Position numbers and translations under genes: made by a program | IMG/VR virus record: IMGVR_UViG_2889482124_000004 | Coordinates: 989-64,988 of that record | DNA length: 64,000 nucleotides | Origin: a virus | Reading direction: 5' to 3' (one strand) | In this document: positions 18,525 through 60,839 of the stretch, piece by piece | Position numbering within the stretch: position 1 is the stretch's first letter | How the letters are laid out: every line of letters begins with the position of its first letter | The notes under the pieces: model-generated | What the model saw: the letters and a program-made list of their open reading frames with translations, nothing else | The model's database searches: none | Told to the model about the DNA's origin: nothing

Positions 18525-21500
18525 TCACTGATTCGCCTCGGCGGCCATCGCTCGCATTTGCTGGCGGATAGCTTTTGGTGATGTGTCCTGAATGCGCTGT
18601 GTTCGATCCTTTTCCATGTTGCGCACGCGCTTCCAAATGTCCGGCATCTTGATGATGATGCGCTGGTCAGGGTTGTTGCGGTTCCAGGCCTCAAGCCTGG
18701 ATCTGACATTGGCCAATGCCGACTCATCTTTCTCAAAAAGCGCCGCGGCCCACTGTGCCTTGATTTCGCTGCTGGTGGTCGTGTAAAAACTGCGACTGCG
18801 CAGCATGAAGCTGTTGGTTTCCTGGACTTCCGAAACGCTTTTAGGTTGAAAGCCCGCCGCCTTCGATAGCGCCTCGGTCAACGTGGTGTCGAGCACCTTG
18901 TATCCTTTGGTGTCCTTATACATGCCACTGACAGCCATATCCACGCCCTTGGCCGCGTTGCGCACTGCGTTGGGCGACACTTCCAGTGCTGCGCCAGCAA
19001 CGTCGCCAGTCAGCAACTTGCGTGCGCCAGTGAAGCCGCGCGATATCAAGTCGCCGGCTGGCCCCACGACTTCCAACAAGTCACGCTCGCGGCTTTGCTT
19101 GCTCAAGAAAAGGCCGGTACCGGGAATCAGGTTGCCCAGACCCAAACGGCCAGACACATCGATTGGCGCACCTGGTAGGCCCGACATACCTTGCTCAAAG
19201 AACTCGCCCAGCTCGGCGCCAATCGTGCTCTGCAGGAACTCCTTTCGCCACTGCTTTGCACTGATGTTGTAGCCCATCAGCTGGCCAGCGCCATCAATCA
19301 GGTCTTCAGCATCCTCCACAAATGGCAGGCCGCCAGCGCCAGCGGTCAACATCAGCATGGCAATCGACCAGCCCACGGCGCGGCGCGCTGCTGCACGGCG
19401 TGGCGCGTAGGCGTCATCACCCTCACCAGCCTGGCGCGGCGGGTTCCACATGCGGTTCATCAGCTCCAGATAGGAGACGCTGTACGTTTTAAACGTAAAC
19501 AAAGTCCCGCCGATAGCCCCGCGCGCCCAGCGCGGTTTGTTGGCCTTCGAGTAAAGAAACTGGGTTTCCAGCACCGCATCACGGGCAAACTGGCCGGGAT
19601 TGGCCATGCCCTGCTCTTTGGCAATGCGGTACGCGGCAATGAAGGTGCTGCGGCGGTTGAACTGCTCGGCCAGGGCGAAAGGTTGGCCCCACGCCACTTT
19701 GACGCGCTCCCAGTTGTTTGCCATAGCTGCGCGTGCATCGCCTGACTTGGTGCCGTCTCCCGCGCGCAGCGATCCGGTACCACGCGCCTGGGCCATCAGT
19801 TGGTGGATCTCTTGCGGGCTCACCGTGCCGTCTTCCACCGCCTCATGCAAGGCCTTGGCCAGGTCGGGCTCGTATTGGTAGCCCTTTGTGCCCATGTCCT
19901 TGAGTGCCCGCGTCATTTGCTTTGCCGCATTGGCCATGCCGCCGTATTGCGACAGCCAAGGCATGGTGATCTGGAATGGCTGCATCATGTTGACCGCAGC
20001 TGAAGCCACCGAACCGCCCAGGTACTGCGCAAACAAGAAGCCACGAATTGCCTGGCCTTCATCCTGTGGATCTTGGATGTAACTGCGCAAGCTCATAGCC
20101 GCGTCGCGCAGCTCGCCCTTTTCCTTGGGGATGGCCTCGACTGCCGTTTCCATGGTGCCGGCATTCAGCCCGCCCGAACCCAAGCGGGCATTGGAATACA
20201 CGAAACTGGCCAGCACGCGGCCGACGTCCTCGCTGTAACCGTCAATGCCCTTGCGATGAATCAGGCGCTTGAGGGCGCTGTGGTTGTTCTTGGCCAACTG
20301 CAGGTACGCCTGGAATGCCTTGTCTTTAGCCTCGTTGCCGTCGCTCTTGAGCCCCAGCATCGAGCCGAATTGCTCCAGGCTCTCAGGGGTAATGCCTTGG
20401 AACAGCTTGAATGCCTGCTGGCTCATGGTGCCTTGAGTGACTGTCGCACCAGGGAATACCGTGGCCATTTTGATTCGCATCAGGTTGGCCTCGCGCTTGC
20501 TCTCAAACATACCGAAGTATTGGCGCTCGCCAGCCTGGTCAACCACATCTACGGTGTATTGACCAAAGCGCGACAGCGGCGCGTAGCCGTAATCCATCAG
20601 GCCTTTGGCCGTTTCGTAGCGGTTCACCACCGAGTTATTGATTGCCAGCAAGCGATCTGCCATGTCTGGGCGCTCTTTGGCTTCTGTCTGCAGCGTCTCG
20701 ACCACCAGGTCAAAGGCATCTTTGAGCATGGGTTGCTCCAGCACCAGCTCTCGCAAATCAGCAAATTCATCACCCAGCATGCGCAGCATGTCGGTGCGGG
20801 CGGTCATGTCGATACTACGGTCAATGGCGCCACGGGCCTCGCGGTACAGACTCACTTGCTGCTCGGTCAGGCCAAACCTGTCTTTAAGCTCTGAATCAGT
20901 CCACACCACACCAGGCTTGAGGAGGTCTCGCTCAAACTTCCCATTTACAACGGCATCAAATTGACCGACTGGCATGCCGCTCCACATTTTGAGCACCTGA
21001 TCGGACACCTTGCCCGAGCGCATGAGCATTGCGGCTTTCTCGGCAGTTGGCGTGTCGCTGTACTTTTTAGACAGCTCATCTACCAGCATTGGCTTGCCAT
21101 CCATGTCGCGCGCCCACATCAGCGTGCCCTCGAACAGCGGTTTGGCCACGGCTTTGTTGTCAGCTGCGGTGATCGGCTTTTTCTTCAGGTCGCCCAGGCT
21201 TTCCACACGCGGCATGAGGCGCGGCGCCGCGTCGGCCGCATCATTGGCCAGCATGGACACGTCATCAATAAAACGCTGCGCTGATTCAAACACCGGCTTG
21301 AACTCAGGCGCGCGCAACGCCAGGTTGCGCATGGTGCCTACGGTTTTATCCCAAAGTGACACCTTACCAGGATGTGTAAAGGTGTGGCTTAGTTGGTCCA
21401 GAGCGCTTTTTTTAATGCCCTCAATCGCCTCTGTACTAAAAAAATCAACATCCTCTTGAGGCTCGATCTTGCTTGCTTTGGCCAAGGCAGCTACACTGAC

Positions 21501-24500
21501 CCCTGACGGCCCCGATCCAGTAGGATGCACCGGCCCGGTGGAAACATCGGGAGCGACTCCAAACATTTCGGGGCCGTTTTCTATTTGCAACGCAGTAACA
21601 TCGTAAAACTTGTGCGGAATCCCATTCGGATCAAGCAAAGCCTCACGCACAGTAATCTTGGCCGCATACACTTTGCCACCCACCTCTAAAGGTGCCACGA
21701 GCGTGTGCATCATTCGCGTTTTGTGCGCCTTACGCTCATCAGGTGCTGACTCTTGCACTTTCACCGCGTTTTTAATCAAATCCGGCAGCGCCTTCACAAT
21801 TTCCGTGCGCCAACCGTCTCGCAAATTGCCAGAAGTCGCAAAAGCAGTATTGCGTCCCTCTGAAGAAAACTGAATCTGCACACCCATGTCATCATTTGCA
21901 AAGGCCTTGCCTTGCAAATTAGTGTTGTACCAAGCGCCAGCAAGCTCTCTCAATTGCTTTTGGCTACCATCCCACCCTTCCAGCGCCAGCTTTACTGGCT
22001 CTAAGGTACGAGACTCTGCCATGTGTGCATCCGCAGGCGTATTGCGCTGTGCAAGCACCGCGCGCACTCGCATGTCTTCACGCATCACATTGACCCCGAT
22101 GTCCAGCGCCCTGGAAAGTGCATCAGTAGCGTTATTGGGCAGGCCAAGAATATTTTTTAGCACCCGCAAAAAGGCATCCCATGCTGACTTGGCTATATTG
22201 CCAGCCGGCGCGTCGATATTCTTGAGAAATCGCTGAAAGTCCGGGTTGGTGAAGGCCTCCGCTGCAAACTCGCGCACGTTCTTCATCCCGTAGTACCCAG
22301 CCGACCCATGGCGCTTTTTAACGTGTTGGTACAGCTTGGACATCTGCAGGGATGGCAGGCTGTTTTGGTGCAATGCGCGAATCGTCACCGCGTGCACGAA
22401 CTCATGCATGAATATCTGCTCGGCACGGCTCTGGGCCTCTGGCCCCATCACTAAGGCGTCTCGCTTTGCGCTGTAGTAGGCAAGCCCGCCCTTTACCTCA
22501 TTTTCAAACACCAACACTGGGTTAGCCTTGGCTTTGCCCATCAGTTTTGCCAGCTGTCTGTAGAATGGATCGCGCGAACCATTGGCGATCATGCCCAGCA
22601 CATCGCTCGCAGGCTTGCCCTCTTGGACCATCGCCATGATGGCGCGGTCAAATGGCGTGCCTTTTTGTGTCAGTTTGCGCGGAAGGGCTCCGAAGGCATC
22701 AATGTCGCCATCAGGCACGCCGACAGCGGCCACCGGCTTGTCGATCACCACCATGCGCGCGGCCACGCCAGTGTTCACAGGTAGGCTCGGATCCATGAAA
22801 GAGCCATCTGGTAGCTTCTCATTCGTGGCGCCACGCTCAACCAGCCAAGAGCGGAAGGCCTCTGCGCGTTTGTTGGACTGAAAGAAAGCGCCCTCGCCCA
22901 TGATTGACACAATCCGGCCACCTGGGCGCAGCAAGCTGTAGGCGTGCATGACGTGCTGGATGTCGCGGCCTTCGGAGAATGGCGGGTTCATCACAATGCG
23001 GTCATACCCGGACCATGAGCCGTTTTGAGCGATACCGGTCAGTTCGCCACGGTCGTATAGACCAAGACGCTTGCCGTCTGCATCCTCCAAACGCACGCGC
23101 TGGCTCCCCATGCTTCCTACACCGCGCATCGTTCCCTCGACGCCATCGGGAGCACGAAAGGTGTCTCCATATGTGAAGAAGCGCCGCGGCTCCAGGGTTA
23201 GGAAGTCATCAACCTCGGCCAAATGAAACCCCTTGGCCTCCAGAAGCTCGCGACGGCTGCCCGAAAGCTCCACCACGTCAGGCCACACGCCAGAATCTGC
23301 AACGATGGCATCAGCGATGTGGCCCATGCCAGCTGAAGGCTCCAGCACAGCCATGCCTTCGGTGATTTCTGCAGCGTCTAGCATGCTCTGCACCACCGCT
23401 GGGCTGGTCGGGAAGAAGTCCAAACCGTCATTGGCGCGGCCCACCATGGAGCGCTCCAACTCCTTGATCCGGTCTGGCGAGCCCATTTCCTGCTGCAACG
23501 ATGCCAGCTCGCGCAAGGCACTGCGGAACTCTGCAGGCGTCTTAATGCCCATTCGCTCCAAGCGTTTGCGGTTGTCGTAGGCGCTCTCCAACTGCCATGG
23601 GATGGCCAGCTCTTTGCTGCCCTTGCGCTTGCCCAGCTTGACCAAGCCCTCGACAAACTCCAAGCCCAGACGCATGCGCTTGTCACCGTCGCCTTGCCAC
23701 AGCCCCTGCTGCATGGCCTCGCCTGGTGAAAGAATGACGCGGTTTTGGCCGCGCTTGATAGGCAGCACAATGGCTTTGCCCACCAGTCCGCTGCGCTTGA
23801 TGGCGCGCTCGGCCGTTTCTTTATTGGCGAATTCTGCAAAGCCGCCATCCGCCTTGTTGCCGAAGTGGCTCACGCGTAGCAGGTTCTCTTTGGCCCAGCT
23901 GGTATAGGCATCGGTCACATCATCAGCAGCCTTGGCCAGCAGCGCGCCCATCTTCTTGCCGCCGTCAACTTCCTGCAACTGACGCGCCAGGTTCGCCAGA
24001 TCACTGCGGAACATTTCAAAGCGGGGAAATTCTGCGAAATCCACCGTTTCGCCATCGATCGGCTCGCCGCTGCGCTTCATGCGTTCGCCGTACTCAGGGT
24101 ACTTAGCCTGCAGCTGACTGCTCTTTGCATTGCGCAGCTGGCCCATCAGGTATTCGACCTGTGTCCGCTGACGCACCCCGTCCAGGAACTGGGCCTTGCC
24201 ATCGTCAATAGCTTTGGCGATGTTGCGCATCGTGCCCGCCAAAGCTTGCTGCATGCGTGCAGCTGCCTCAGCAGAAGCAGCAAATCGTGCACGGCGTTCA
24301 GTGTTCACCTTGCGATCAGCGCCCAGCGCATCTGCGGCGCGCTCATCCAGCGCCTCGGCCATGGTGCGCAGGCGCTCGGCCGCGCTCTGGCTCTTGTCAT
24401 CATCAAAAGCATCGCGGCGCTGACTCGCCAACTCCTGCGCCTGTGTGGTATCACCGGCCATCAGTTTCTGGAAGGCCTCGGCCGCCTCTCGGGTGCGGAA

Positions 24501-27500
24501 CTGGAAGCCTGGAATCGCGCCATTGCCGCGATAACTGCTGTAGCTGCCACCAAGCTGCTTGGCGCTGGCATTGAGGGTGTCATAGGCATCACGCTCCACG
24601 CGATCAGCCAGCGCCACCACAAATAGGTCGTGCCCTTTCTTGGTGTGCTTGGTGGCGACGACTTCACCAGCCGTAGTGTTGCCTGCGCTCTGCACAGAAG
24701 TCAGCGCCTTGCGTTTAGCTGCCTCGCGCGCCTCTTTGGTCTGCGCTGCCTCCAACGCGTCAAACTGCTGGCGTTGCTCTGGTGTCAGTCGCAAGAATGC
24801 GGCCGTTCCCGAATCACCCTGATCGATCCAATGCTTCAAAAATCCTCGGAAGTCCTGCAAGGTCTTTGGGCTGGCAAGCGCTGCTGCCTTTGCTTCTCGT
24901 TCGGCCTTGAATTCGTCACGGATCGATTTGATTTCCGCCGCGCGCTTGCTCAAATCTTCAGCCGTTGTGTTGGCTACCAGCTCGCGCAAGGCCTCGGCTT
25001 GTTTTGCGCGGTGCGCGCTCATGCCGCTTGAACTCAAGACATGGCTGCTCGGGCCATAGCTGCGCCCCAAGGCGTAAGTCTTCATCATTTCAGCGTAGGC
25101 CGCTGCCACGATGTCGGCTTTCTTTTCTCCCTTGTTGCGATAGGCAAAGACCGTCCCGCCAGCGCGCAGAAGCTCGTCCTTGGTCAATTTTTCCAACTCG
25201 GCAACCACTGCGTCGCGGTTGGTCTCCAGGTCGGCAAATGCGCTCTTGTACTCATCCAGGTTCAGAGTGCCTGCGCTGATGCCGGCCTCAATGGCGTTGT
25301 GACGAGCAAGAAAAGCAATAGGCTCAGGCGCTGCGATGGCCTTCTCCACCGTGAACGTCACGCGGCGGCCTGCCGCCATATCCGCCTTGAAGGACGTGCG
25401 CCCACCATCGACTGGGTCAAACACATGCACATCACCTCTTGGGGAGATGCTTTCAACCAGCAAAGGCACTCCGCCCCTCACATAGTCAAAATCCTTTGAT
25501 GCCGTGATCGTGTCGCCTTGAACGGCTCCATTAAGGTAATCAGCCGAAATCTCGGCGATTTTTGCCTCTGCAGCTTTGGCAACCACACCTCTGAGCTTCT
25601 TTGCTGACACGCTATTAGGTTTTTCGATCACCACCTTACGCATGCCACCCTCACGCATAACCATGCGTTGACCGTCCACGATGCTCTTGAAGTCCTTGGA
25701 TGCGGCTTTCCACTCCTCCATGGTCATGCGCACCGGCTCTTCGGGCTTCGCCTTGGCCTTCTCCGTCTCGCGGGCTGCGGCGTCCTCTGCTGCCTTGCGC
25801 TCACGCGCGGCGCGCATCTTGTCCACCACGGATTGGCTGATCTCGGCCGCGCGCGCTGTCAGCTCAGCCATACGGGCCTTTGCGTAGTCGCCCAGGTTGT
25901 GCAGCTTGATGACGGACTTGGCCGCTTCAATGAACTTCTGCGCCTCTATGGCGTTCTCTTCGGCCAGGCGCTGCGCTAGCCGGTCGAGCCCTTTATCCAC
26001 CTCGGCACGCGGCTTGGCGAACTCGTCGTAGTCGGCGGGATAGGCATACCCGAAGTCGACGCCATGCTGCTGGCCGTCCACCCGGAACTTGCGCTCTGCA
26101 TGCGAGATCCCTGTGATGACGCCTGTTCCGTATGGCTTCTGTGTCCCGGCAATCTTGACGGTTTCGCCCCGAGCGAACGTCACGGGGGCAACGTCCCCGC
26201 CGTCGTTCGCGCGCATCAGGGTGAAGTGGTCGCGGTCGTTTGTGGCACTAGCACCCGTATTCGCTTCTTTCCCTGTAGCTTCCGGCGCAGCATCGGCGCT
26301 GTTGCCGGTCAAATTTGAAGCAGAATTTGCGAAAGGTGCCATCGGCTTCAAGATGCTGGGAACCACGGCCGGCTGTTCGCCGAACAGATACATCAACATG
26401 CTTTCGCGGTCGCTGTCCGTGAGCACGCCAGACTTCAGCAGCGTGGTGGCCTTAAAGATCGGCGCATTGAATGTGTCGCCCCGGCTCTCAGCTTCTGCCA
26501 CCGCGTTGTCGATCAGCCATTGAGAGGCGTAGCGCTCGCCCTTCTGTTTCGGGTGGGGACTGGTGGAGCGCCCTGAGCTGGTGGTGAAGGTGTCGCCCGG
26601 CATGATGGGGTCACCATCGACGGCGCGGCCCTCGTCGTTCATCGCCCGAGGTGCGGCAGGCGACTTTGCTACCTTTTTGACCGCAGTCTTTGGCACCTGG
26701 TTTGCGCTTGGCGAAGCCTTTACTGCCGCCAATGCTTGCTCGACCGGGGCATCCAACACGATGGCTTTGACCTGCTTGCCATCCTCTGCAGCACCTACTG
26801 CCTGGTGGTGGCCATCAATAATGTGACCATCGCTAGTCACAATGACGGCGCGATCGCCCCCTGCCGTTTTGGCAGCCGCCACCTTGGATGGCGAATACTC
26901 GGCCTGGGTAGGTTTAAGCTCTGCCGCATCCACGGTCTTGGTTTCATGGCCAATGCCCTGAGCATTCAAGTGCTTGACCAGGCCGCCATGGTTGGCAGTG
27001 GGAACTTGGGGCATGTCAGCGCGCGGGATGCCCAATGTTCCCGTCTCTGGCGCGAAAGCCTTTTCATCACCTACCACTGGCGCTGCCTGAGCTTTTATGG
27101 CGTCGGCAATCTTGCCCTGCAGTTTGCTATTTAGCTTCTCCCACTGAGACTTTGGCAGATTTTTTGCGATGACCGGTGCTACGCCATCCAAGCGCGCCGC
27201 CAGCGCGGATCGTTCTGCGGCAGGCATGCGGGCCCACTGTGCACCTGCATCGGTAATTCGCTGTTTTGGGTCAACGGCTTGCGGCTGAGCTTGCGTCGTT
27301 GGCGTCGTGCCATCTTGACTGACATTGTTTTGAGTCGCGGTGGCGCCATTGGCAGTTGCTCCTTCTGTGGTTGCTGGTTGCGCGGCTGTCGCGCGGGCTT
27401 GAATCGCTTTCTGAATCTTTTCCTGGCGGCCATGTTCACCTGGCAGCAGGCTGGCCAGCTGGTGCAGCTCGCCCGTGGTCATCTCGGCCAGCTTTTTGCG

Positions 27501-29357
27501 ATTGAGCTGGGCCAATGTCGCCAAGTTAGCGCCCTTAGCTTTTGATCCTGGCGCGAGGGGCGAAGATTCACCTCCACCTTGCACCTCAATACGCGCAGGA
27601 ACCGGCCCTGCATCCTCTTGCACGCTGGCAAATGCACCATCGGCAACATCGGGCATTTCACCGGCGGCCAGGTCTTCATCCAGTTCGGCCTGCAGAGCTT
27701 CTTGCTCGCGACGCGCACGACGACTCTGCAACTCGACCGCAAGCTCTTGACGCACCGACTTGCCTTGAGCGCTTTTAAAGGCATTTCTTAGTTGTTCATC
27801 CGACCAATCTGCAAACTCTGCAGCCAATTGAACGCCAAGAATTTCCCCGGTCTCTGGATCTACCGTGGTACTGGCCTTCTCTACTTTTTGGCGCGCCGCC
27901 TTCATGTCGATCGCATCCTGCGCCGCCGTCTGCAGGACTTCAGATTCGGTAGACTCGGGCTTGGCCTGGGCATGTGCAGCAGCTGTGTCTTGTTGCTGCT
28001 GCAATTGATCGCTCACGCCTGAATCAACTGCATGCGCCGCGCCGGCAGACAATGGCCCCGCGTTTGGGTCAATGCCCATTTGCTCAGAAGGCTTTGGCGT
28101 GACCAACTCTGGCTGGCTGAAATCCAGTGCCTGATCAATTCGGTCAGCATCCAACCTGGTGGGCGGATTCACGCCGGCCTGCATCAGCCGCTCTTCATCC
28201 AGAACCGGGGCACGGCCCTGCTCTGAGCGCGCCTGCTCTTGCAGCTGCTGGATGAATGCGGCACGCAGCGCGTCTTTGCCTGTCGGCGCCGGTGCTTCTG
28301 ATTCCACCTCTACGGCACCAGGCTGCACTGGTTGCTCCTGGGCTCCACTTCTAGAGGTCACGCCTTTAAAGCCTGCAGCGCCAGCCCCCATAGCGCCGCC
28401 CGTCAAGACGCCCATTACGACCGCCGAATCAAGGTCATCCGTCCAGTTATCGCCAAGGGCAATGTTTTGCAGGATCTGCTCAGTGACCGATTGCGGCAGC
28501 TCTTCAAACACGCCTTCGGCAATTGCGCCTTTGACCATTGCCGCTGGAATAGCGCGCAATGCAGTTTGTGTTGCTTGGGCAGTCGCTGGGTCGGCAACTG
28601 GATCGCGCAGCGCTTTCGCGCCTTGGGCGATCATGATGTCAGCATCACCCACACCGAGCTTTTGCGAAAGCCTGTTGCCAAAGGCACCAAATGCACCACC
28701 CAGAACGCCTGTGCCTACTGACAGGAGCGATTGCACCGGTGTGATTAAGCCGTCTTCAGTCTCTTGCCTGATCGCCGCTGCTTGGGCGCCTGCCATCACT
28801 GCACCCTCGCCTGCCGCGCTAGCAAACGCAGCACCTTTTGCGCCAGCTTGGCCAAGCCGTGTCGCGGCCATCAGGCCTCGTGCCGCCACGCCACCAGCAC
28901 CCATGGCACCTAGCGACTCGCCAACGCCCTCAAGAATCAGGCTTGGATTCTGTATCGCCGTTTTGGCCTTGTCGACGAACCCCTCGGCTTCCTCAAACTT
29001 GCGATGCGCTTCGCGAGATTGATCAGACTTGATGTTCTCGTTGACAAGATGCTTGGCTTCGGCGGGCTTAAAACCAACTTTTTCTTCAAGAAACTTGCCT
29101 ACGCGGCCGCCTGTGGGAATGTCGGCTAGACCGACAACAGCCTCGGGAACTGAGATAGCAGCGTTAAGCACCGTGCCAGCAATGTCACGAGCCATGCCCG
29201 TGACGCTTCGACCTTCGGGCTCAAAGCCCATATCTTCTTCACTCAGGAAGCGCTGCTTCTTATCCGGGCTATCTGGCGACTGGCTTGTTGAGCCATCTGC
29301 CGTGATTCCCATGTCCGCATCGGTAAGATACTTTGGTTTTGATTTGTCTTGTTCCAT
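18525..29357 (-). CDS. Giant PLxRFG-domain polyvalent protein (ParB-like, N6-adenine methyltransferase, zincin, LPD3/BECR-like domains); probable DarB-like ejected virion protein
   Basis: 3610 aa; L.PTQ...IIDGHH; FFPT...VLEPSAG.G...DRIVMNPPF; HEFVH; YAPLSRFG. Confidence 0.85.
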   Translation of the reverse strand: MEQDKSKPKYLTDADMGITADGSTSQSPDSPDKKQRFLSEEDMGFEPEGRSVTGMARDIAGTVLNAAISVPEAVVGLADIPTGGRVGKFLEEKVGFKPAEAKHLVNENIKSDQSREAHRKFEEAEGFVDKAKTAIQNPSLILEGVGESLGAMGAGGVAARGLMAATRLGQAGAKGAAFASAAGEGAVMAGAQAAAIRQETEDGLITPVQSLLSVGTGVLGGAFGAFGNRLSQKLGVGDADIMIAQGAKALRDPVADPATAQATQTALRAIPAAMVKGAIAEGVFEELPQSVTEQILQNIALGDNWTDDLDSAVVMGVLTGGAMGAGAAGFKGVTSRSGAQEQPVQPGAVEVESEAPAPTGKDALRAAFIQQLQEQARSEQGRAPVLDEERLMQAGVNPPTRLDADRIDQALDFSQPELVTPKPSEQMGIDPNAGPLSAGAAHAVDSGVSDQLQQQQDTAAAHAQAKPESTESEVLQTAAQDAIDMKAARQKVEKASTTVDPETGEILGVQLAAEFADWSDEQLRNAFKSAQGKSVRQELAVELQSRRARREQEALQAELDEDLAAGEMPDVADGAFASVQEDAGPVPARIEVQGGGESSPLAPGSKAKGANLATLAQLNRKKLAEMTTGELHQLASLLPGEHGRQEKIQKAIQARATAAQPATTEGATANGATATQNNVSQDGTTPTTQAQPQAVDPKQRITDAGAQWARMPAAERSALAARLDGVAPVIAKNLPKSQWEKLNSKLQGKIADAIKAQAAPVVGDEKAFAPETGTLGIPRADMPQVPTANHGGLVKHLNAQGIGHETKTVDAAELKPTQAEYSPSKVAAAKTAGGDRAVIVTSDGHIIDGHHQAVGAAEDGKQVKAIVLDAPVEQALAAVKASPSANQVPKTAVKKVAKSPAAPRAMNDEGRAVDGDPIMPGDTFTTSSGRSTSPHPKQKGERYASQWLIDNAVAEAESRGDTFNAPIFKATTLLKSGVLTDSDRESMLMYLFGEQPAVVPSILKPMAPFANSASNLTGNSADAAPEATGKEANTGASATNDRDHFTLMRANDGGDVAPVTFARGETVKIAGTQKPYGTGVITGISHAERKFRVDGQQHGVDFGYAYPADYDEFAKPRAEVDKGLDRLAQRLAEENAIEAQKFIEAAKSVIKLHNLGDYAKARMAELTARAAEISQSVVDKMRAARERKAAEDAAARETEKAKAKPEEPVRMTMEEWKAASKDFKSIVDGQRMVMREGGMRKVVIEKPNSVSAKKLRGVVAKAAEAKIAEISADYLNGAVQGDTITASKDFDYVRGGVPLLVESISPRGDVHVFDPVDGGRTSFKADMAAGRRVTFTVEKAIAAPEPIAFLARHNAIEAGISAGTLNLDEYKSAFADLETNRDAVVAELEKLTKDELLRAGGTVFAYRNKGEKKADIVAAAYAEMMKTYALGRSYGPSSHVLSSSGMSAHRAKQAEALRELVANTTAEDLSKRAAEIKSIRDEFKAEREAKAAALASPKTLQDFRGFLKHWIDQGDSGTAAFLRLTPEQRQQFDALEAAQTKEAREAAKRKALTSVQSAGNTTAGEVVATKHTKKGHDLFVVALADRVERDAYDTLNASAKQLGGSYSSYRGNGAIPGFQFRTREAAEAFQKLMAGDTTQAQELASQRRDAFDDDKSQSAAERLRTMAEALDERAADALGADRKVNTERRARFAASAEAAARMQQALAGTMRNIAKAIDDGKAQFLDGVRQRTQVEYLMGQLRNAKSSQLQAKYPEYGERMKRSGEPIDGETVDFAEFPRFEMFRSDLANLARQLQEVDGGKKMGALLAKAADDVTDAYTSWAKENLLRVSHFGNKADGGFAEFANKETAERAIKRSGLVGKAIVLPIKRGQNRVILSPGEAMQQGLWQGDGDKRMRLGLEFVEGLVKLGKRKGSKELAIPWQLESAYDNRKRLERMGIKTPAEFRSALRELASLQQEMGSPDRIKELERSMVGRANDGLDFFPTSPAVVQSMLDAAEITEGMAVLEPSAGMGHIADAIVADSGVWPDVVELSGSRRELLEAKGFHLAEVDDFLTLEPRRFFTYGDTFRAPDGVEGTMRGVGSMGSQRVRLEDADGKRLGLYDRGELTGIAQNGSWSGYDRIVMNPPFSEGRDIQHVMHAYSLLRPGGRIVSIMGEGAFFQSNKRAEAFRSWLVERGATNEKLPDGSFMDPSLPVNTGVAARMVVIDKPVAAVGVPDGDIDAFGALPRKLTQKGTPFDRAIMAMVQEGKPASDVLGMIANGSRDPFYRQLAKLMGKAKANPVLVFENEVKGGLAYYSAKRDALVMGPEAQSRAEQIFMHEFVHAVTIRALHQNSLPSLQMSKLYQHVKKRHGSAGYYGMKNVREFAAEAFTNPDFQRFLKNIDAPAGNIAKSAWDAFLRVLKNILGLPNNATDALSRALDIGVNVMREDMRVRAVLAQRNTPADAHMAESRTLEPVKLALEGWDGSQKQLRELAGAWYNTNLQGKAFANDDMGVQIQFSSEGRNTAFATSGNLRDGWRTEIVKALPDLIKNAVKVQESAPDERKAHKTRMMHTLVAPLEVGGKVYAAKITVREALLDPNGIPHKFYDVTALQIENGPEMFGVAPDVSTGPVHPTGSGPSGVSVAALAKASKIEPQEDVDFFSTEAIEGIKKSALDQLSHTFTHPGKVSLWDKTVGTMRNLALRAPEFKPVFESAQRFIDDVSMLANDAADAAPRLMPRVESLGDLKKKPITAADNKAVAKPLFEGTLMWARDMDGKPMLVDELSKKYSDTPTAEKAAMLMRSGKVSDQVLKMWSGMPVGQFDAVVNGKFERDLLKPGVVWTDSELKDRFGLTEQQVSLYREARGAIDRSIDMTARTDMLRMLGDEFADLRELVLEQPMLKDAFDLVVETLQTEAKERPDMADRLLAINNSVVNRYETAKGLMDYGYAPLSRFGQYTVDVVDQAGERQYFGMFESKREANLMRIKMATVFPGATVTQGTMSQQAFKLFQGITPESLEQFGSMLGLKSDGNEAKDKAFQAYLQLAKNNHSALKRLIHRKGIDGYSEDVGRVLASFVYSNARLGSGGLNAGTMETAVEAIPKEKGELRDAAMSLRSYIQDPQDEGQAIRGFLFAQYLGGSVASAAVNMMQPFQITMPWLSQYGGMANAAKQMTRALKDMGTKGYQYEPDLAKALHEAVEDGTVSPQEIHQLMAQARGTGSLRAGDGTKSGDARAAMANNWERVKVAWGQPFALAEQFNRRSTFIAAYRIAKEQGMANPGQFARDAVLETQFLYSKANKPRWARGAIGGTLFTFKTYSVSYLELMNRMWNPPRQAGEGDDAYAPRRAAARRAVGWSIAMLMLTAGAGGLPFVEDAEDLIDGAGQLMGYNISAKQWRKEFLQSTIGAELGEFFEQGMSGLPGAPIDVSGRLGLGNLIPGTGLFLSKQSRERDLLEVVGPAGDLISRGFTGARKLLTGDVAGAALEVSPNAVRNAAKGVDMAVSGMYKDTKGYKVLDTTLTEALSKAAGFQPKSVSEVQETNSFMLRSRSFYTTTSSEIKAQWAAALFEKDESALANVRSRLEAWNRNNPDQRIIIKMPDIWKRVRNMEKDRTQRIQDTSPKAIRQQMRAMAAEANQ

Positions 29358-56647: not shown

Positions 56648-57178
56648 ATGCTCAGTGAAATCAGTCTTGCTCTCACAGCCATCACTGGCGCGAAAACAAT
56701 TACCGAAGGGCTTGTCGCGGAGAGAGATGCCGTCAAGATCAGAACAGCGACCTCCGAACTCCTTGGACTCCTGATTGATGTGCAGGGCACACTTCTTGCA
56801 TTGCAGCGCGATCAAGCAGTGCTCAACGAAGAGCTTGCGCGGCACAAGAAAGAAAAGTCGGAACTTGCCGATCGCCTGAAACGTGTTGAACGTACGCGCC
56901 AGGAGTACACCGACTATGAAAGAGTTCTTGTTGCGGGCGGCCATTGCGTTGTCTACGCCGCAAAGCCAGATGAACATAGAGTGCGGCACCCGCCCTACCT
57001 GTGTGCAACATGTTTCGAGGCCGATCAGTACTCGACGTTGAGCCTTCAAATGGGTACGCAAAAGAAACCCGGCAGAAAACTCGTTTGCCCTGCATCTGCA
57101 CTTCACACGCTTGCGCTTCCACGTGGAAGCTGGACGCCAGAGAACCTTTGCCCTGTGGAAAAAAGCGTTCAACCTTGA
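56648..57178 (+). CDS. Antisense moron: coiled-coil protein with a C-terminal Zn ribbon
   Basis: M..EIS.A.TA...A..I...L...RD; P.YLC.TCF...LVCP; ATG 56648. Confidence 0.7.
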   Translation: MLSEISLALTAITGAKTITEGLVAERDAVKIRTATSELLGLLIDVQGTLLALQRDQAVLNEELARHKKEKSELADRLKRVERTRQEYTDYERVLVAGGHCVVYAAKPDEHRVRHPPYLCATCFEADQYSTLSLQMGTQKKPGRKLVCPASALHTLALPRGSWTPENLCPVEKSVQP

Positions 57179-57429
57179 TTGCATGCCGCCCCCTTTTGCT
57201 GGGAGGCCGGCCTGCATGCTGTTTCCTTGGGCTCAAGGCGGGGATTGCGAGCTTTTTTAACAGACACACCCAAAAATAACTTTGGATGATCGAGCTTCAC
57301 TCGTGGAGGAATGCCTCGCTCAATCCAGTTGTGCACGCGCTGAGCGCCTCCAGCACGCAAGTCATAGCCAAGCAGTTCGGCCAGCTTTGAGGCACCGCCA
57401 TAGTGTTGAATAAGTTCAGCATCAGTCAT
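57169..57429 (-). CDS. cro: Cro-like repressor
   Basis: D.ELI...GG..KLA.LLG......QRV.NW..RGIP; divergent from cI. Confidence 0.88.
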   Translation of the reverse strand: MTDAELIQHYGGASKLAELLGYDLRAGGAQRVHNWIERGIPPRVKLDHPKLFLGVSVKKARNPRLEPKETACRPASQQKGAACNQG

Positions 57430-57436
57430 AACCGAC

Positions 57437-57488
57437 ATTAAACACTATGTTTTAGACCGATGCAACAGCACGTTTAAACGTTTTGTTG
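57437..57488. promoter_or_regulatory. OR operators and PR promoter
   Basis: 13-bp sites AAACActaTGTTT (57440), CAACAgcaCGTTT (57463), AAACGtttTGTTG (57476); minus-strand TTGCAT-17-TTTAAT. Confidence 0.8.
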
Positions 57489-57494
57489 AAAAAT

Positions 57495-58160
57495 ATGCAT
57501 ATGACCCCTACCATGACGCGCCTCTATCAGGCAATTGCATACCTGACCGGGAAATCCGAAGTGGGACCAACTGACGCTGCACATTTTTTGGGGCTGCCAA
57601 ACTCGCAGACCGTCAAAAATTGGGAATCACGCGGCCCTTCAAACGAGGGAATGGTTGCGATTGCTCTCAAAGGGGTGAGTTTGGGTTGGCTGCAAACGGG
57701 TAGCGGACCCATGCTTCCTAGCCTTGCTAACGTTGAGCCAGGGCCAAGCCTAAGAGGCGGCGACGTGCCTCTTATTTCCTGGGTGCAAGCAGGCACATTC
57801 TGCGAAGCCATTGATACATATACTGTAGGCGACGCCGAAAAGTGGCTTGTATGTCCCGTACCGCACAGCGAATCAACCTTTGCACTAAGGGTTCGCGGCG
57901 ACTCGATGACTGCTTTTGGCGGAGGACGCAGCTATCCAGAGGGCAGCATCATTTTCATTGACCCGGAGCGCCGCAGCCCAACAAATGGTGATCGCATAGT
58001 GGCCTGCTTAGAGGACAGTCCAACGCATGAAGTCACATTCAAAGTCTTCAAAGACGAAGATGGCAAAAAGTGGTTGATGCCTCTCAATCCAATGCACTCA
58101 CCAATCAGAGATAAGTTTCGCGTTCTTGGCACTGTGATTGGCCAATGGATTGACGACTAG
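57495..58160 (+). CDS. cI: CI repressor (HTH plus S24 peptidase)
   Basis: QTVKNWESRG HTH; VPLISWVQAG cleavage site; GDSM; TFK. Confidence 0.92.
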   Translation: MHMTPTMTRLYQAIAYLTGKSEVGPTDAAHFLGLPNSQTVKNWESRGPSNEGMVAIALKGVSLGWLQTGSGPMLPSLANVEPGPSLRGGDVPLISWVQAGTFCEAIDTYTVGDAEKWLVCPVPHSESTFALRVRGDSMTAFGGGRSYPEGSIIFIDPERRSPTNGDRIVACLEDSPTHEVTFKVFKDEDGKKWLMPLNPMHSPIRDKFRVLGTVIGQWIDD

Positions 58161-58181
58161 CTAGCATTTATCTCGAGCGCC

Positions 58182-58207
58182 AAGCCCGCACTACGCGGGT
58201 TTTTTTT
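58182..58207 (+). terminator. Terminator after cI
   Basis: GCCCGC-actac-GCGGGT followed by a T run. Confidence 0.85.
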
Positions 58208-58249
58208 CGCTCGAATTAAGTGCATTGTGAGAATTTCCACTAAAGAACC

Positions 58250-58301
58250 AAACACAATGTTTAAACATTACGTTGACACACTGAAAAACATGGTGTTTAA
58301 T
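58250..58301 (+). promoter_or_regulatory. OL operators and PL promoter
   Basis: AAACAcaaTGTTT (58250), AAACAttaCGTTG (58263), AAACAtggTGTTT (58286); TTGACA(58273)-17-TTTAAT(58296). Confidence 0.85.
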
Positions 58302-58660
58302 TATTCCATCGCAACAAAAGCGATGGGCACCAAGCGATCGAGCCGCATGCCTCACTCTCTTTAGAACGCCGCATGCAGCAAGCGGCCAATAAATGACTGC
58401 ACTCGCTCTACTACTTGCAAGCCGCCCGGATGGGGTCACGGTGCAGCGATCTGGGAAAGGCCTGGCGAACCCCACACACCGGGGTCATCAAGAATAGGTA
58501 GTTGAGGCGCGGCGCCAAGAAAAGAAAAACCGATGGGTGAAGACGACCCAGCACAACGGTCATGCTGGTTGGAATCCCGGCCTGGTCTTCGCAAGAGGGC
58601 CATCAAGAATGCTCGCACTGGCAGCAATGCCCGGCGGATAAGAGCTGCGGGCATTCTTGA

Positions 58661-59114
58661 GAGGAGTAGATAGGTTGAGGCGGCGATGATGCAGCTGGTG
58701 ATGAATTTAGCGGGAAAGCGGACTGGTTGCCCAGTCCGCCCCACACGGTCACAGCATAGAAATGATGAATGCAAAAATGCGCAAGCACGCAGCAACATCA
58801 ATTTTTATGCTCACCTTCACTTGGACTTTCATGGAGTGATCCCTGAAAAGTCCCGTGGCCACGGGACGGTTAATCCCGCTGAACTTATTACGCGCTTTTG
58901 CTAGCGCGGCCAGATGCTTACCTAGGATGGGCTTCTGGCATCGGCTTAATGTTGGCGTGCAATACCCTTGTCGCCGAGCAGGCAGCCTGCATGGCACCGC
59001 CATGCAGATTGCATACCAACACCGCACCTTAAGCGGCTTGACAGGCCGCAGTGCGCTGCGTCTACAGCGCATTGTGATTGTCGCAGATTCGCTGCCTCAA
59101 CCTATCTATTTCTT
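58661..59114 (+). ncRNA. Large structured RNA of unknown class in the PL leader
   Basis: 26-bp closing stem with 4 G-U pairs and no mismatch; nested stems with G-U pairs and GNRA loops; no credible ORF. Confidence 0.7.
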
Positions 59115-59200
59115 GACTACAAGAACGCCAGCAAATCAATGGCTTTTTATTCTGGCCCTCAGCAAAACAGCTCGCGGGCCTTTTTCATTTCAGGGGCTTC

Positions 59201-59488
59201 ATGGACGAAGAAAACACACAAAGCGCCAGTACCAAGAAAGGCATCAATTCCCTGAGTGATGATGAATTTCAGCGATTTATCAGTACTGGCAAAACAATGA
59301 ACATCAAGCAGATAAATGCAAGGCTTGGTGGCCCTTTCGTCACTGCAGGACTGATTGAAACCCTTCGAATCGAGTCCCGCAAAGAGCGGGCTGCAACACA
59401 CATCGCGGCAGATCACTTTCACAAGCTGGCCGCCCGGCTCGCTGCACACATCCTTACGCAATCTGGCCGCTCCACTGAGGAAGCCTGA
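59201..59488 (+). CDS. Hypothetical early protein
   Basis: First ORF with a plausible RBS after the PL leader. Confidence 0.55.
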   Translation: MDEENTQSASTKKGINSLSDDEFQRFISTGKTMNIKQINARLGGPFVTAGLIETLRIESRKERAATHIAADHFHKLAARLAAHILTQSGRSTEEA

Positions 59489-59499
59489 TTTACCCACCT

Positions 59500-59525
59500 G
59501 CCCGCATTACGCGGGCTTTCTTTTT
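59500..59525 (+). terminator. Intrinsic terminator
   Basis: GCCCGC-attac-GCGGGC-TTTCTTTTT. Confidence 0.75.
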
Positions 59526-59534
59526 GGAGGCCAC

Positions 59535-59954
59535 ATGGCTCAAAAACTCATAAACCCCACCAAGAAGGTGGATCGCAAATCGTTTAGCGAATTCCTCAGT
59601 GCACTGCCCGACCTAGAGGCAGAGCTGACTGATGCGCTGAATGACATGGTGCACGCCAGCACTGAAACCGGCAAGCTCAGCGAGCTGAACTTGAAGATCA
59701 AGATGAAGCCCCAGGGGGGCACATCAGGCCAAGTCGAGCTTGATATGGACGTGAAAGCCAAACTGCCCCAGCCTACACGCGGCAAAACCCTCATGTTCGC
59801 CACCCCAGACAACAACCTGCAGCGCGAGAACCCAAAGCAGCAAACGCTGGAAGGCCTGCGCACACCAGACCAGGAGGCGCAGGCCCAAACCATGGCGGCA
59901 CTGCGCAAAGCGCCAGCCGATGACGCTAAGGCACCCCTGCGCGCCGTCAACTAA
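59535..59954 (+). CDS. Conserved early phage protein that usually precedes DUF2303
   Basis: ETGK...L.L.I..KP...VK.KLP......F.TPD.NL.R..P.Q..L. Confidence 0.8.
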   Translation: MAQKLINPTKKVDRKSFSEFLSALPDLEAELTDALNDMVHASTETGKLSELNLKIKMKPQGGTSGQVELDMDVKAKLPQPTRGKTLMFATPDNNLQRENPKQQTLEGLRTPDQEAQAQTMAALRKAPADDAKAPLRAVN

Positions 59955-59984
59955 TTTCCAACCGTCCATTTCATAGGAGATCCC

Positions 59985-60839
59985 ATGGATCTGAACGAAA
60001 CCAATACCGAGACAGTCGCTAAGGATGTCTTGGCTGCTTGCAATCAATCAATCCGCGAAGTCGGCGGAACGCCACTCATGGTTTTGCCCGCAGGCTTCAC
60101 CGTGGCCAATTTGAGTAAATACCTCGACAAACCCACGCGCAAGAGCGGCACAACTGTGCTCAACGATGCTGCATCCTTCATTGCCGTGGTTGTGGAGCAG
60201 AAAGGCGCACAAACGCACTTGTTCAGCACAATCAGCCCGCCCTCCTTCACGGCCGTGTTCAATTCAAATGCGGGTGAAGCGGGCTATGGCGACCACCGTG
60301 CCACCTACAACGCCCCAATCTCGCCCGAGTGGGGTGAGTGGACGAAGGTGGACAAAAAGCACATGAACCAGGTGGAAATGGCGCAGTTCCTAGAGGCCAA
60401 TATGGTCGATGTTGTGCATATCGCGGCTGATCTGCCAAACCGCGAGCTTGGCAGCCCGGACGGTGCAACACTGTTGGAAATCTGCCGTGCGCTGGAAGCC
60501 AAGAAGAACGTGGAATTCAAGAGCGCCGTGCGCCTGGGCGATGGCTCCACCCAATTCACCTACAACGAAGAAGTGCGAGGTACAGCATCCGTTGCGGGCG
60601 GCACTCTGGAAATCCCTGCTCAATTCTCCATCGGCGTGCCGGTGTTTGAGAACGGCGAGAAGTACCGCCAGGACGTGCATTTCCGCTACCGCATTCAGGA
60701 AGGCGGCAAGCTGGTGATGTGGATCGAGCTGATCCGCGCGCACAAGGTGATTGAGGATGCAGTCAAGCAGATGCGTGCACACATTGCGGAAGCGACTGCG
60801 CTGCCTGTGCTGAACGGTACAGCGCCAGCAGCCCGCTAA
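59985..60839 (+). CDS. DUF2303/YfdQ-family protein
   Basis: P.R..G...L....SF, S.EW..W, Q...A.FLE.N, F.SA.RL..G, IP..F....PVF. Confidence 0.85.
   Translation: MDLNETNTETVAKDVLAACNQSIREVGGTPLMVLPAGFTVANLSKYLDKPTRKSGTTVLNDAASFIAVVVEQKGAQTHLFSTISPPSFTAVFNSNAGEAGYGDHRATYNAPISPEWGEWTKVDKKHMNQVEMAQFLEANMVDVVHIAADLPNRELGSPDGATLLEICRALEAKKNVEFKSAVRLGDGSTQFTYNEEVRGTASVAGGTLEIPAQFSIGVPVFENGEKYRQDVHFRYRIQEGGKLVMWIELIRAHKVIEDAVKQMRAHIAEATALPVLNGTAPAAR

Follow-up and report, generated by a model that had tools for sequence, protein, structure and literature searches.

A conserved structured cassette in a prophage early leader carries a small antisense peptide gene and may be a type I toxin-antitoxin-like module

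Introduction

What function does a very strongly folded stretch of some 450 nt serve in the early leader of a prophage, and which of its strands carries that function? We take up this question for positions 58661-59114 of a 64,000-nt stretch of viral DNA (IMG/VR record IMGVR_UViG_2889482124_000004, positions 989 to 64,988; hereafter the window), which is a prophage. The first-pass annotation of the element, made from the letters alone, had described it as a multi-branched structured RNA of unknown class, a phage non-coding RNA (ncRNA) with no credible open reading frame (ORF). Judged by its homologues, the element belongs to a family of self-contained, conserved cassettes of ~450 nt, which temperate phages carry beside cI in their untranslated early leader. 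Its minus strand holds an ORF that, from the pattern of substitutions, is conserved in a coding manner: third-position bias, in-frame insertions and deletions (indels), and a kept start and stop. We suggest that the cassette could be a new type I toxin-antitoxin-like module, a reading in which our confidence and our doubt are about evenly balanced.

Results

A conserved and self-contained cassette

On the plus strand, 58661-59114 folds with a minimum free energy (MFE) of -230.1 kcal/mol, against -154.1 +/- 6.9 in 100 dinucleotide shuffles (z -11.06, none of the 100 as good); on the minus strand the value is -204.3 kcal/mol (z -7.15). The MFE fold comprises 168 pairs and is unchanged when the whole leader, 58305-59200, is folded. 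Its main parts are the following.

58661-59114: the 454-nt structured cassette, supported by fold (z -11), homologues and compensatory change
58661-58686 (5' arm, window orientation) with 59089-59114 (3' arm): closing helix P1, 26 consecutive pairs, four of them G-U; duplex -45.5 kcal/mol
58698-58715 with 58874-58891: helix of 7 + 10 pairs about one A.C mismatch, three G-U
58718-58739, 58753-58811, 58823-58853, 58950-59021, 58987-59007 and 59047-59076: hairpins in the MFE fold
58883-58913: near-invariant 31-nt block with hairpin 58892-58907, invariant in the six-sequence alignment except at two positions

The helices listed in the first-pass annotation are all present in the sequence, and the MFE fold contains all but one of them, including the closing helix of 26 positions with its four G-U pairs and the helix 58698-58715/58874-58891 with three G-U and one mismatch. 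The exception, GCGGCTTG / CAGGCCGC, is missing from the MFE fold of the window and is found in the family consensus only (helix 17). The description of the class as unknown also holds: Rfam gave no match at gathering thresholds across the 64-kb window (the models included sok, Sib, PtaRNA1, C4, GOLLD, ROOL, introns and ribozymes), matches at E <= 10 within 58100-59300 were at chance level (the best, E 0.69 with 20 bits against 40, lies outside the element), and ARAGORN found no tRNA or tmRNA gene in the window.

Plain DNA similarity did not reach the family. Blast-type searches with 58210-59200 or 58300-59200 gave no match in 50,697 phage records or 72,556 plasmids, and a search of 60 relatives with the leader gave none. 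In 400 family genomes, 17 short matches (21-96 nt, 16 genomes, E 5e-4 to 9e-3) were rejected as scattered chance matches in G+C-rich sequence, save four terminator look-alikes and a leader block at locus L013. Scanning viral contigs for a P1 motif returned one match, a chance one within a coding region; a 27-nt consensus motif had no match in the window, the 31-nt block 58883-58913 none in 400 order genomes, and the cassette of L057 none by blastn in phage records. Diverged copies of 58848-58985 in unlike flanks are present in public sequencing runs, and one of these copies shows, in hairpin 58909-58939, three adjacent compensatory changes (58914 A>C/58934 T>G, 58916 G>T/58932 C>A and 58915 T>C/58933 T>G). 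A pattern taken from the part unchanged in these copies led to three viral loci, and a gapped pattern to three metagenome loci. A back-translated peptide scan of viral contigs (for the peptide described below) yielded 12 loci, nine of them new. All 12 hold the whole cassette together with the near-invariant block, which lies outside the query and is near-identical also in the loci found by peptide alone. Besides the window there are 13 further distinct copies (14 members), in viral and metagenome contigs, with 446-458 nt between the ends of the closing helix. Over 254-400 nt, five of these (L045-L049; 446-458 nt) share 70.5-77.4% identity with the window; a long terminal helix closes each one, and the MFE is -196 to -233 kcal/mol.

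Compensatory change among the homologues maintains the structure. The RNAalifold consensus of a six-sequence alignment (A3) has 119 pairs, of which 29 changed on both sides, against 13.3 +/- 2.3 in shuffles (0/500), the six sequences representing two or three clades and their cells therefore not being independent. Standard pairs occupy 90.8% of the cells against 85.6 +/- 0.6 in shuffles, and when the partners are slid by 1-3 columns the number of pairs changed on both sides is 2-11. Five of the six sequences had been found by a pattern inside the element, and the co-varying pairs lie outside that pattern. Changes on both sides affect nine of the 19 pairs of P1 (helix 1) and three of the eight of hairpin 58718-58739 (helix 3), in which 95.8% of cells are paired.

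A small gene on the minus strand

The claim that the element has no credible ORF failed on the minus strand, where the following features were recognized.

58752-58832, minus strand: small ORF MKVQVKVSIKIDVAACLRIFAFIISML, 27 codons with the stop at 58749-58751, conserved in the family
58718-58739, minus strand: 9-bp hairpin, G+C, directly 3' of the stop codon of the peptide gene; loop GCAA on this strand
58823-58853, minus strand: hairpin (helix 10) pairing the AUG, the first codons and Shine-Dalgarno (SD)-like GGGA/GGAG
59077-59085, minus strand: candidate extended -10 (TGnGAYAMT) for a minus-strand transcript, in the same alignment column in 6/6 sequences and seen in 13/13 rows of a wider set

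An ATG-started ORF stands at the same place in all six aligned copies (27 aa in the window, 28-30 aa in the others), and 13 of the 14 distinct members have one of 27-30 aa. In L054 (3001 onward) the usual stop is lost and the frame reads to 63 aa; the peptide gene is perhaps in decay there, or else a variant. Pairwise differences at codon positions 1, 2 and 3 number 140, 103 and 213, synonymous changes make up 98 of 279 differing codon pairs, and differences in length are whole codons; the other two frames of the minus strand have 4-5 and 0-1 stops. A longer protein made by in-frame upstream extension was considered and rejected, the extension varying from 11 to 88 open codons.

The peptides have a grand average of hydropathicity (GRAVY) of 1.19-1.61, rising to 1.89-2.74 over the last 15 residues, and a net charge of +3 or +4. 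A profile built from six of them retrieved, from 1.84 billion proteins, 34 cluster representatives with E <= 1e-3, five of them with E <= 1e-10; 25 of the 34 are 28-38 aa long, and the other nine are longer calls that match at their C-terminal end. No name is attached to any of the 17 members listed from 10 peptide clusters. The profile found nothing in 399 class genomes (one genome unscored), and tblastn of a family peptide against phage records gave no match, low-complexity filtering being able to hide the peptide in that search. A match of one of the six peptides to Pfam SAM_5 (E 0.06, 13.6 bits against a cut-off of 27) was dismissed as chance.

Thus, one half of the ncRNA claim stands: the element is strongly structured and conserved. 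The other half does not, since a conserved ORF of 27-30 aa on the opposite strand means that it is not purely a non-coding plus-strand RNA. As regards what the first-pass annotation had itself named as incompatible with its view, a conserved translated ORF does appear to be present, as far as codon patterns can tell, while neither an Rfam family nor a miniature inverted-repeat element (MITE) was found (no Rfam match; single copy, coding interior).

The start codon and signals for transcription

In all 13 members whose ORF is intact, a stretch further upstream is paired with the AUG and the first codons; the GGAG/GGGA lies in an inner mini-hairpin. The stem sequences of this AUG hairpin differ between members, so that codons 2-3 co-vary with its 5' side. 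As to transcription, the near-invariant block 58883-58913 was also read as a -10 element and rejected, its hexamer varying (TAATAA / TAACAA / TTAAAT). One metatranscriptome run gave a 231-nt contig over 58796-59026 with one difference, a weak signal for which DNA carry-over may account.

Neither strand is singled out by structure

The first-pass annotation had argued for the plus strand from the G-U pairs of P1. The argument holds for P1 of the window; the homologues favour neither strand. MFE values (kcal/mol) are as follows.

Window: plus -230, minus -204
L045: plus -233, minus -219
L046: plus -221, minus -203
L047: plus -196, minus -210
L048: plus -198, minus -198
L049: plus -207, minus -210

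The minus strand folds equally well or better in L047, L049, L052, L056, L059 and L062. Consensus energy is -115.6 for the plus strand against -120.8 for the minus strand with six sequences, and -105.1 against -101.7 with 14. Structure alone, therefore, does not choose the strand.

The immunity region and the early leader

The cassette lies between the immunity region, defined by cI- and cro-like genes, and the early-left genes.

57172-57438, minus strand: cro-like gene, divergent from cI and defining the immunity region together with it
57483-58160, plus strand: cI-like repressor gene (S24/LexA-type); phrog_4 transcriptional repressor, E 8.7e-37
58182-58202, plus strand: intrinsic terminator 3' of cI, 8-pair stem and T run, from the terminator scan
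58273-58301, plus strand: PL-like early promoter, TTGACA (58273)-17 nt-TTTAAT, with inverted repeats on either side, inferred by reading the sequence
58320-58620: conserved leader RNA region common to other phages and distinct from the 58661-59114 element
58603-58660: hairpin between leader core and element, arms 58603-58617 / 58646-58660, an inverted repeat 93% complementary
59154-59185, plus strand: terminator-like hairpin and T run just 5' of the first early ORF, read from the sequence and not in the program's terminator scan
59201-59488, plus strand: first early-left ORF, 95 aa, no family, with terminator 59500-59516 downstream
59535-60839: phrog_204 and phrog_210 genes of the early-left operon, downstream of terminator 59500-59516

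The promoter-like site agrees with the earlier placing of the element about 350 nt downstream of PL, in the early-left leader. The site 58273-58301 is omitted by the program's promoter scan, whose rule demands an A as the second base of the second hexamer; the corresponding site in L045 reads TTGACA/TATACT. For ~900 nt after the site there is no convincing plus-strand ORF.

The leader region was traced through a short block shared between the window leader and L013, which led to a 24-nt motif, 58558-58581 (invariant hairpin GGTCATGCYGGTTGGAATCCCGGC), with exact matches in 15 IMG/VR contigs. These contigs share ~250-300 nt of leader RNA directly after repressor-controlled early promoters, with compensatory changes in several stems (L013, L030-L044), and none of the 15 carries the 58661-59114 element. 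A hairpin like 58603-58660 (CCATCAAG...) is present in L013 and L036. Downstream of the leader core the window alone is strongly structured (z -4.4 to -7.1 per 300 nt); 14 of the 15 other scorable sequences lie at about -2.8 to +1.8, L030 reaching -4.6 and L040 -3.2 in the first scored window only. In L041 and L043 a hairpin comes directly after the leader, then an intrinsic terminator and a gene, an arrangement that suggests a cis-acting role for the leader, such as antitermination. A hairpin-plus-TTTTTCATTTCAGG resembling 59154-59185 occurs at four loci in other genomes.

Near relatives differ in what follows the leader. A related prophage from public sequencing runs (organism C, 55-kb contig) matches 58300-58620 and 59141-59250, and 226 other letters replace 58621-59140; organism B, from the same kind of source, matches the leader region and diverges after 58620. 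Most members have the cassette within a hairpin loop of the conserved leader, with P1 continuing that hairpin. In the window it comes after the leader core, and in L045 it stands in a different leader body. Given these varied positions and the replacement in organism C, the cassette behaves as a swappable, stem-closed module. The peptide gene is antisense to the direction of cI and the early genes in eight of nine informative loci (window, L045, L047, L049, L053, L056-L058), a count that leaves aside six further loci with no cI-like match within reach.

A separate 74-nt motif, outside the cassette and in the same phage leaders, is Rfam RF02917 (Burkholderiales-2), classed as cis-regulatory and an orphan. 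It was matched in eight of the 11 related loci scanned, always on the peptide strand; in L047, L049, L056 and L057, where the cassette is nested, it ends ~10-13 nt before the cassette. It occurs also in leaders lacking a cassette (L031, L032, L039 and L041) and was not detected in the window, even at E <= 10. Part of the conserved leader in relatives is RF02917, yet the strand given in Rfam opposes early transcription. The name 'Burkholderiales-2' appeared neither in the literature searched nor in the main text of PMC5737381. The cassette-bearing phages appear to infect Burkholderiales-type hosts.

Some further observations concern the surroundings. The 5' arm of P1 (58655-58690) nearly repeats the leader stretch 58485-58520 at 16 of 19 aligned positions, a score reached by one of 500 shuffles, and the 3' arm (59089-59118) could pair with that stretch instead (-32.3 vs -45.5 kcal/mol); this near-repeat is possibly an alternative pairing, or a trace of cassette movement. 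The first early ORF, 59201-59488, is flanked by the terminator-like hairpin 59154-59185 and by the clear terminator 59500-59516, whose stem (GCCCGC...GCGGGC) nearly equals that of the post-cI terminator 58182-58202, and early-left expression past this ORF would need read-through. No relatives of its 95-aa product were found in genomes or viral contigs. The phrog_204/phrog_210 pair has 66% protein identity to an Acidovorax sp. NB1 prophage and two IMG/VR contigs (L002-L004). Searching by neighbouring genes gave four loci through phrog_210 (L002-L005), with upstream regions unlike the window leader, and just two distant loci through cI. The prophage region also has a single ORF of 3,610 aa (18525-29357, minus strand), and the viral contig that bears the cassette copy of L047 includes, at 9105-9285, an Rfam RT-15 RNA (144.5 bits), a reverse-transcriptase-associated motif.

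Discussion

Overall, we suggest that the cassette is, with roughly equal chances for and against, a type I toxin-antitoxin-like module. Its core would be the minus-strand gene, coding for a 27-aa cationic, very hydrophobic and presumably membrane-active toxin peptide. The toxin would be silenced by the folding of its own mRNA, in which the start codon and the SD-like bases would be locked in the hairpin 58823-58853, and also by an antisense RNA, which could be the transcript of the early leader or else a shorter RNA from the plus strand. P1 would close the insert in such a way that the cassette leaves the surrounding leader RNA undisturbed, and it may offer a duplex of the RNase III type; cutting of this 26-bp helix by RNase III, which the first-pass annotation had proposed, is possible. 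Minus-strand transcription, toxicity, the identity of the antitoxin and the RNase III step are what we infer from this arrangement. Since the gene is antisense to early transcription in most copies, the early PL-type transcript would be a full-length antisense to the peptide mRNA.

Systems built from a structured mRNA, the small toxic peptide it encodes and an antisense RNA are already known. What passages of PMC2887945 give as characteristic of type I toxins, a length of <70 aa with a transmembrane region, agrees in size and hydrophobicity with peptides of 27-30 aa and GRAVY 1.19-1.61. As in hok/sok and AapA/IsoA, a small hydrophobic peptide gene lies in a highly structured RNA of a few hundred nt (toxin mRNAs measure 150-400 nt according to a part of PMC8594479), the start region is predicted to be held in a hairpin, and an antisense RNA would be available from the other strand. 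Passages of PMC8167048 report SD sequestration with 5'-3' long-distance pairing in the AapA1 and hok mRNAs, and the helix that joins the ends of the cassette would, provided that the toxin mRNA takes in both of its arms, be similar to the hok mRNA fold-back inhibition and the aapA1 5'-3' interaction described there. Unlike these two systems, the cassette is placed inside a phage early leader and fully covered by the early transcript, has no match in Pfam, NCBIfam, PADLOC, PHROGs or Rfam, and shows no dedicated antitoxin small RNA (sRNA) gene. With Ibs/Sib it shares a very short hydrophobic peptide and would share an antisense RNA across the entire ORF, as a part of PMC8594479 describes for that pair, the spanning RNA here being the plus-strand leader; it differs in that the peptides are unrelated by family searches, the flanks are much longer, and the gene is single-copy, not tandem. 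In our literature search on type I toxin-antitoxin systems with prophages or betaproteobacteria, PtaRNA1 and T1TAdb, no description of the peptide or the element was found; the T1TAdb paper names type I families from enterobacteria, Firmicutes and Helicobacter, and Burkholderia and Betaproteobacteria are absent from its main text (PMC8594479). Unusual features are the size of the conserved scaffold and its nesting in a phage early leader, antisense to a repressor-controlled promoter.

Several observations weigh against a toxin-antitoxin function. The peptides have a short hydrophobic stretch with R or K in it, and the polar or aromatic C-terminal tail that many type I toxins have, according to the same passages of PMC2887945, is absent. 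The six peptides matched no NCBIfam family at E <= 10 (6/6 without a match) and no entry of PADLOC or PHROGs, and no known toxin family was recognized; those that Pfam and NCBIfam cover include Hok/Gef, Ldr, TisB, Ibs, Fst, ptaRNA1-type and other type I toxins. The gene is single-copy in its own genome, whereas several type I families often have their genes in tandem. A hunt for a promoter or terminator on the minus strand of the cassette produced none that convinced, TGnGAYAMT being the sole conserved candidate; it has no proper -35 and lies inside P1, so that a transcript starting from it would omit the closing helix. On the plus strand of the cassette no dedicated promoter or terminator of an antitoxin sRNA was found. 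The early leader, moreover, cannot be a standing antitoxin, because PL should be repressed in the lysogen, and in L046 the peptide gene is on the cI strand.

A different explanation, which we hold to be unlikely, makes the plus-strand RNA the functional molecule, as a structured domain of the PL leader (an RNase III site by which the early operon's stability or translation is tuned, a Rho shield, or a decoy for a protein or a defence system), with the ORF secondary or unused. Comparable leader elements of lambdoid PL transcripts are the lambda N-leader RNase III site and the HK022 put RNA, likewise located just after a repressor-controlled early-left promoter and before a terminator, and with a long perfect duplex that could be an RNase III substrate; they are ~70-200 nt long, act on the sense strand and have no antisense ORF, in which they differ from the cassette. 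The plus strand is certain to be transcribed across the element, given the promoter-like site 58273-58301 and the plus-strand genes downstream; P1, with its nine doubly changed pairs of 19, forms only in an RNA spanning both ends and extends a hairpin of the conserved leader in most members; in the window, L045 and L046 it is the plus strand that gives the better fold; and the element has a conserved leader RNA on one side and a terminator-like hairpin on the other. Yet a plus-strand domain leaves unexplained the third-position bias, the in-frame indels, the conserved start and stop and the 34 peptide clusters, and the hairpin co-varying with codons 2-3 is positioned precisely over the AUG. 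The minus fold, as shown above, is as good or better in six loci, and 12 other members of the leader family have no structured insert, so that such an insert is not needed for leader function. The ribozyme, antiterminator or decoy roles advanced in the first-pass annotation found no support in the analysis.

In a second alternative, the ORF is an ordinary accessory ('moron') gene of the prophage for a membrane peptide (serving, e.g. superinfection exclusion or lysis control), with structured untranslated regions and no toxin-antitoxin logic. The immunity region beside cI is a usual site of accessory genes expressed in the lysogen. The L046 copy, downstream of cI on the same strand and after four other ORFs, fits such a gene, as do the failure to find an antitoxin RNA gene and the presence or absence of the cassette between near relatives. 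We nevertheless think it improbable: ~370 nt of conserved, co-varying structure round an 84-nt gene, together with a sequestered start, goes far beyond what an accessory gene needs, and the antisense placement in the early leader at eight of nine loci points to sense-antisense regulation. That the cassette is a MITE, with the P1 arms as terminal inverted repeats, seems to us hardly credible. The inverted repeat of 25-26 bp, a location that varies with respect to the conserved leader, and the other sequence found instead in a close relative would suit a mobile element; the element is, however, single-copy in its own genome, with no copy in 60 relatives and 400 family, 400 order and 399 class genomes (about 1,260), target-site duplications were not observed, the conserved interior is coding and co-varies, and the P1 arms change by compensation instead of being kept identical.

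Returning to the toxin-antitoxin-like reading, a more specific form of it is doubtful: a toxin module that has the phage's own early PL transcript as its antitoxin, the CI switch deciding whether the toxin is neutralised, and that travels as a stem-closed insert able to enter loops of a conserved leader RNA and leave it intact. Were this so, host killing or the exclusion of other phages would be coupled to lysogeny, antisense pairing over the full length would switch the toxin off once the resident phage turns lytic, and the orphan motif Burkholderiales-2 would gain a biological context.

For genome annotation, the locus carries the lesson that a striking 'non-coding' fold can conceal a 27-codon gene on the opposite strand. 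It also shows that a module of 450 nt can nest within another structured RNA. If the toxin-antitoxin-like reading holds, these phages would carry small toxin-like peptides of a family not named before, whose RNA scaffold, supported by covariation, is unusually large, and its placement in the leader of the immunity region would link a toxin to the lysis-lysogeny switch.

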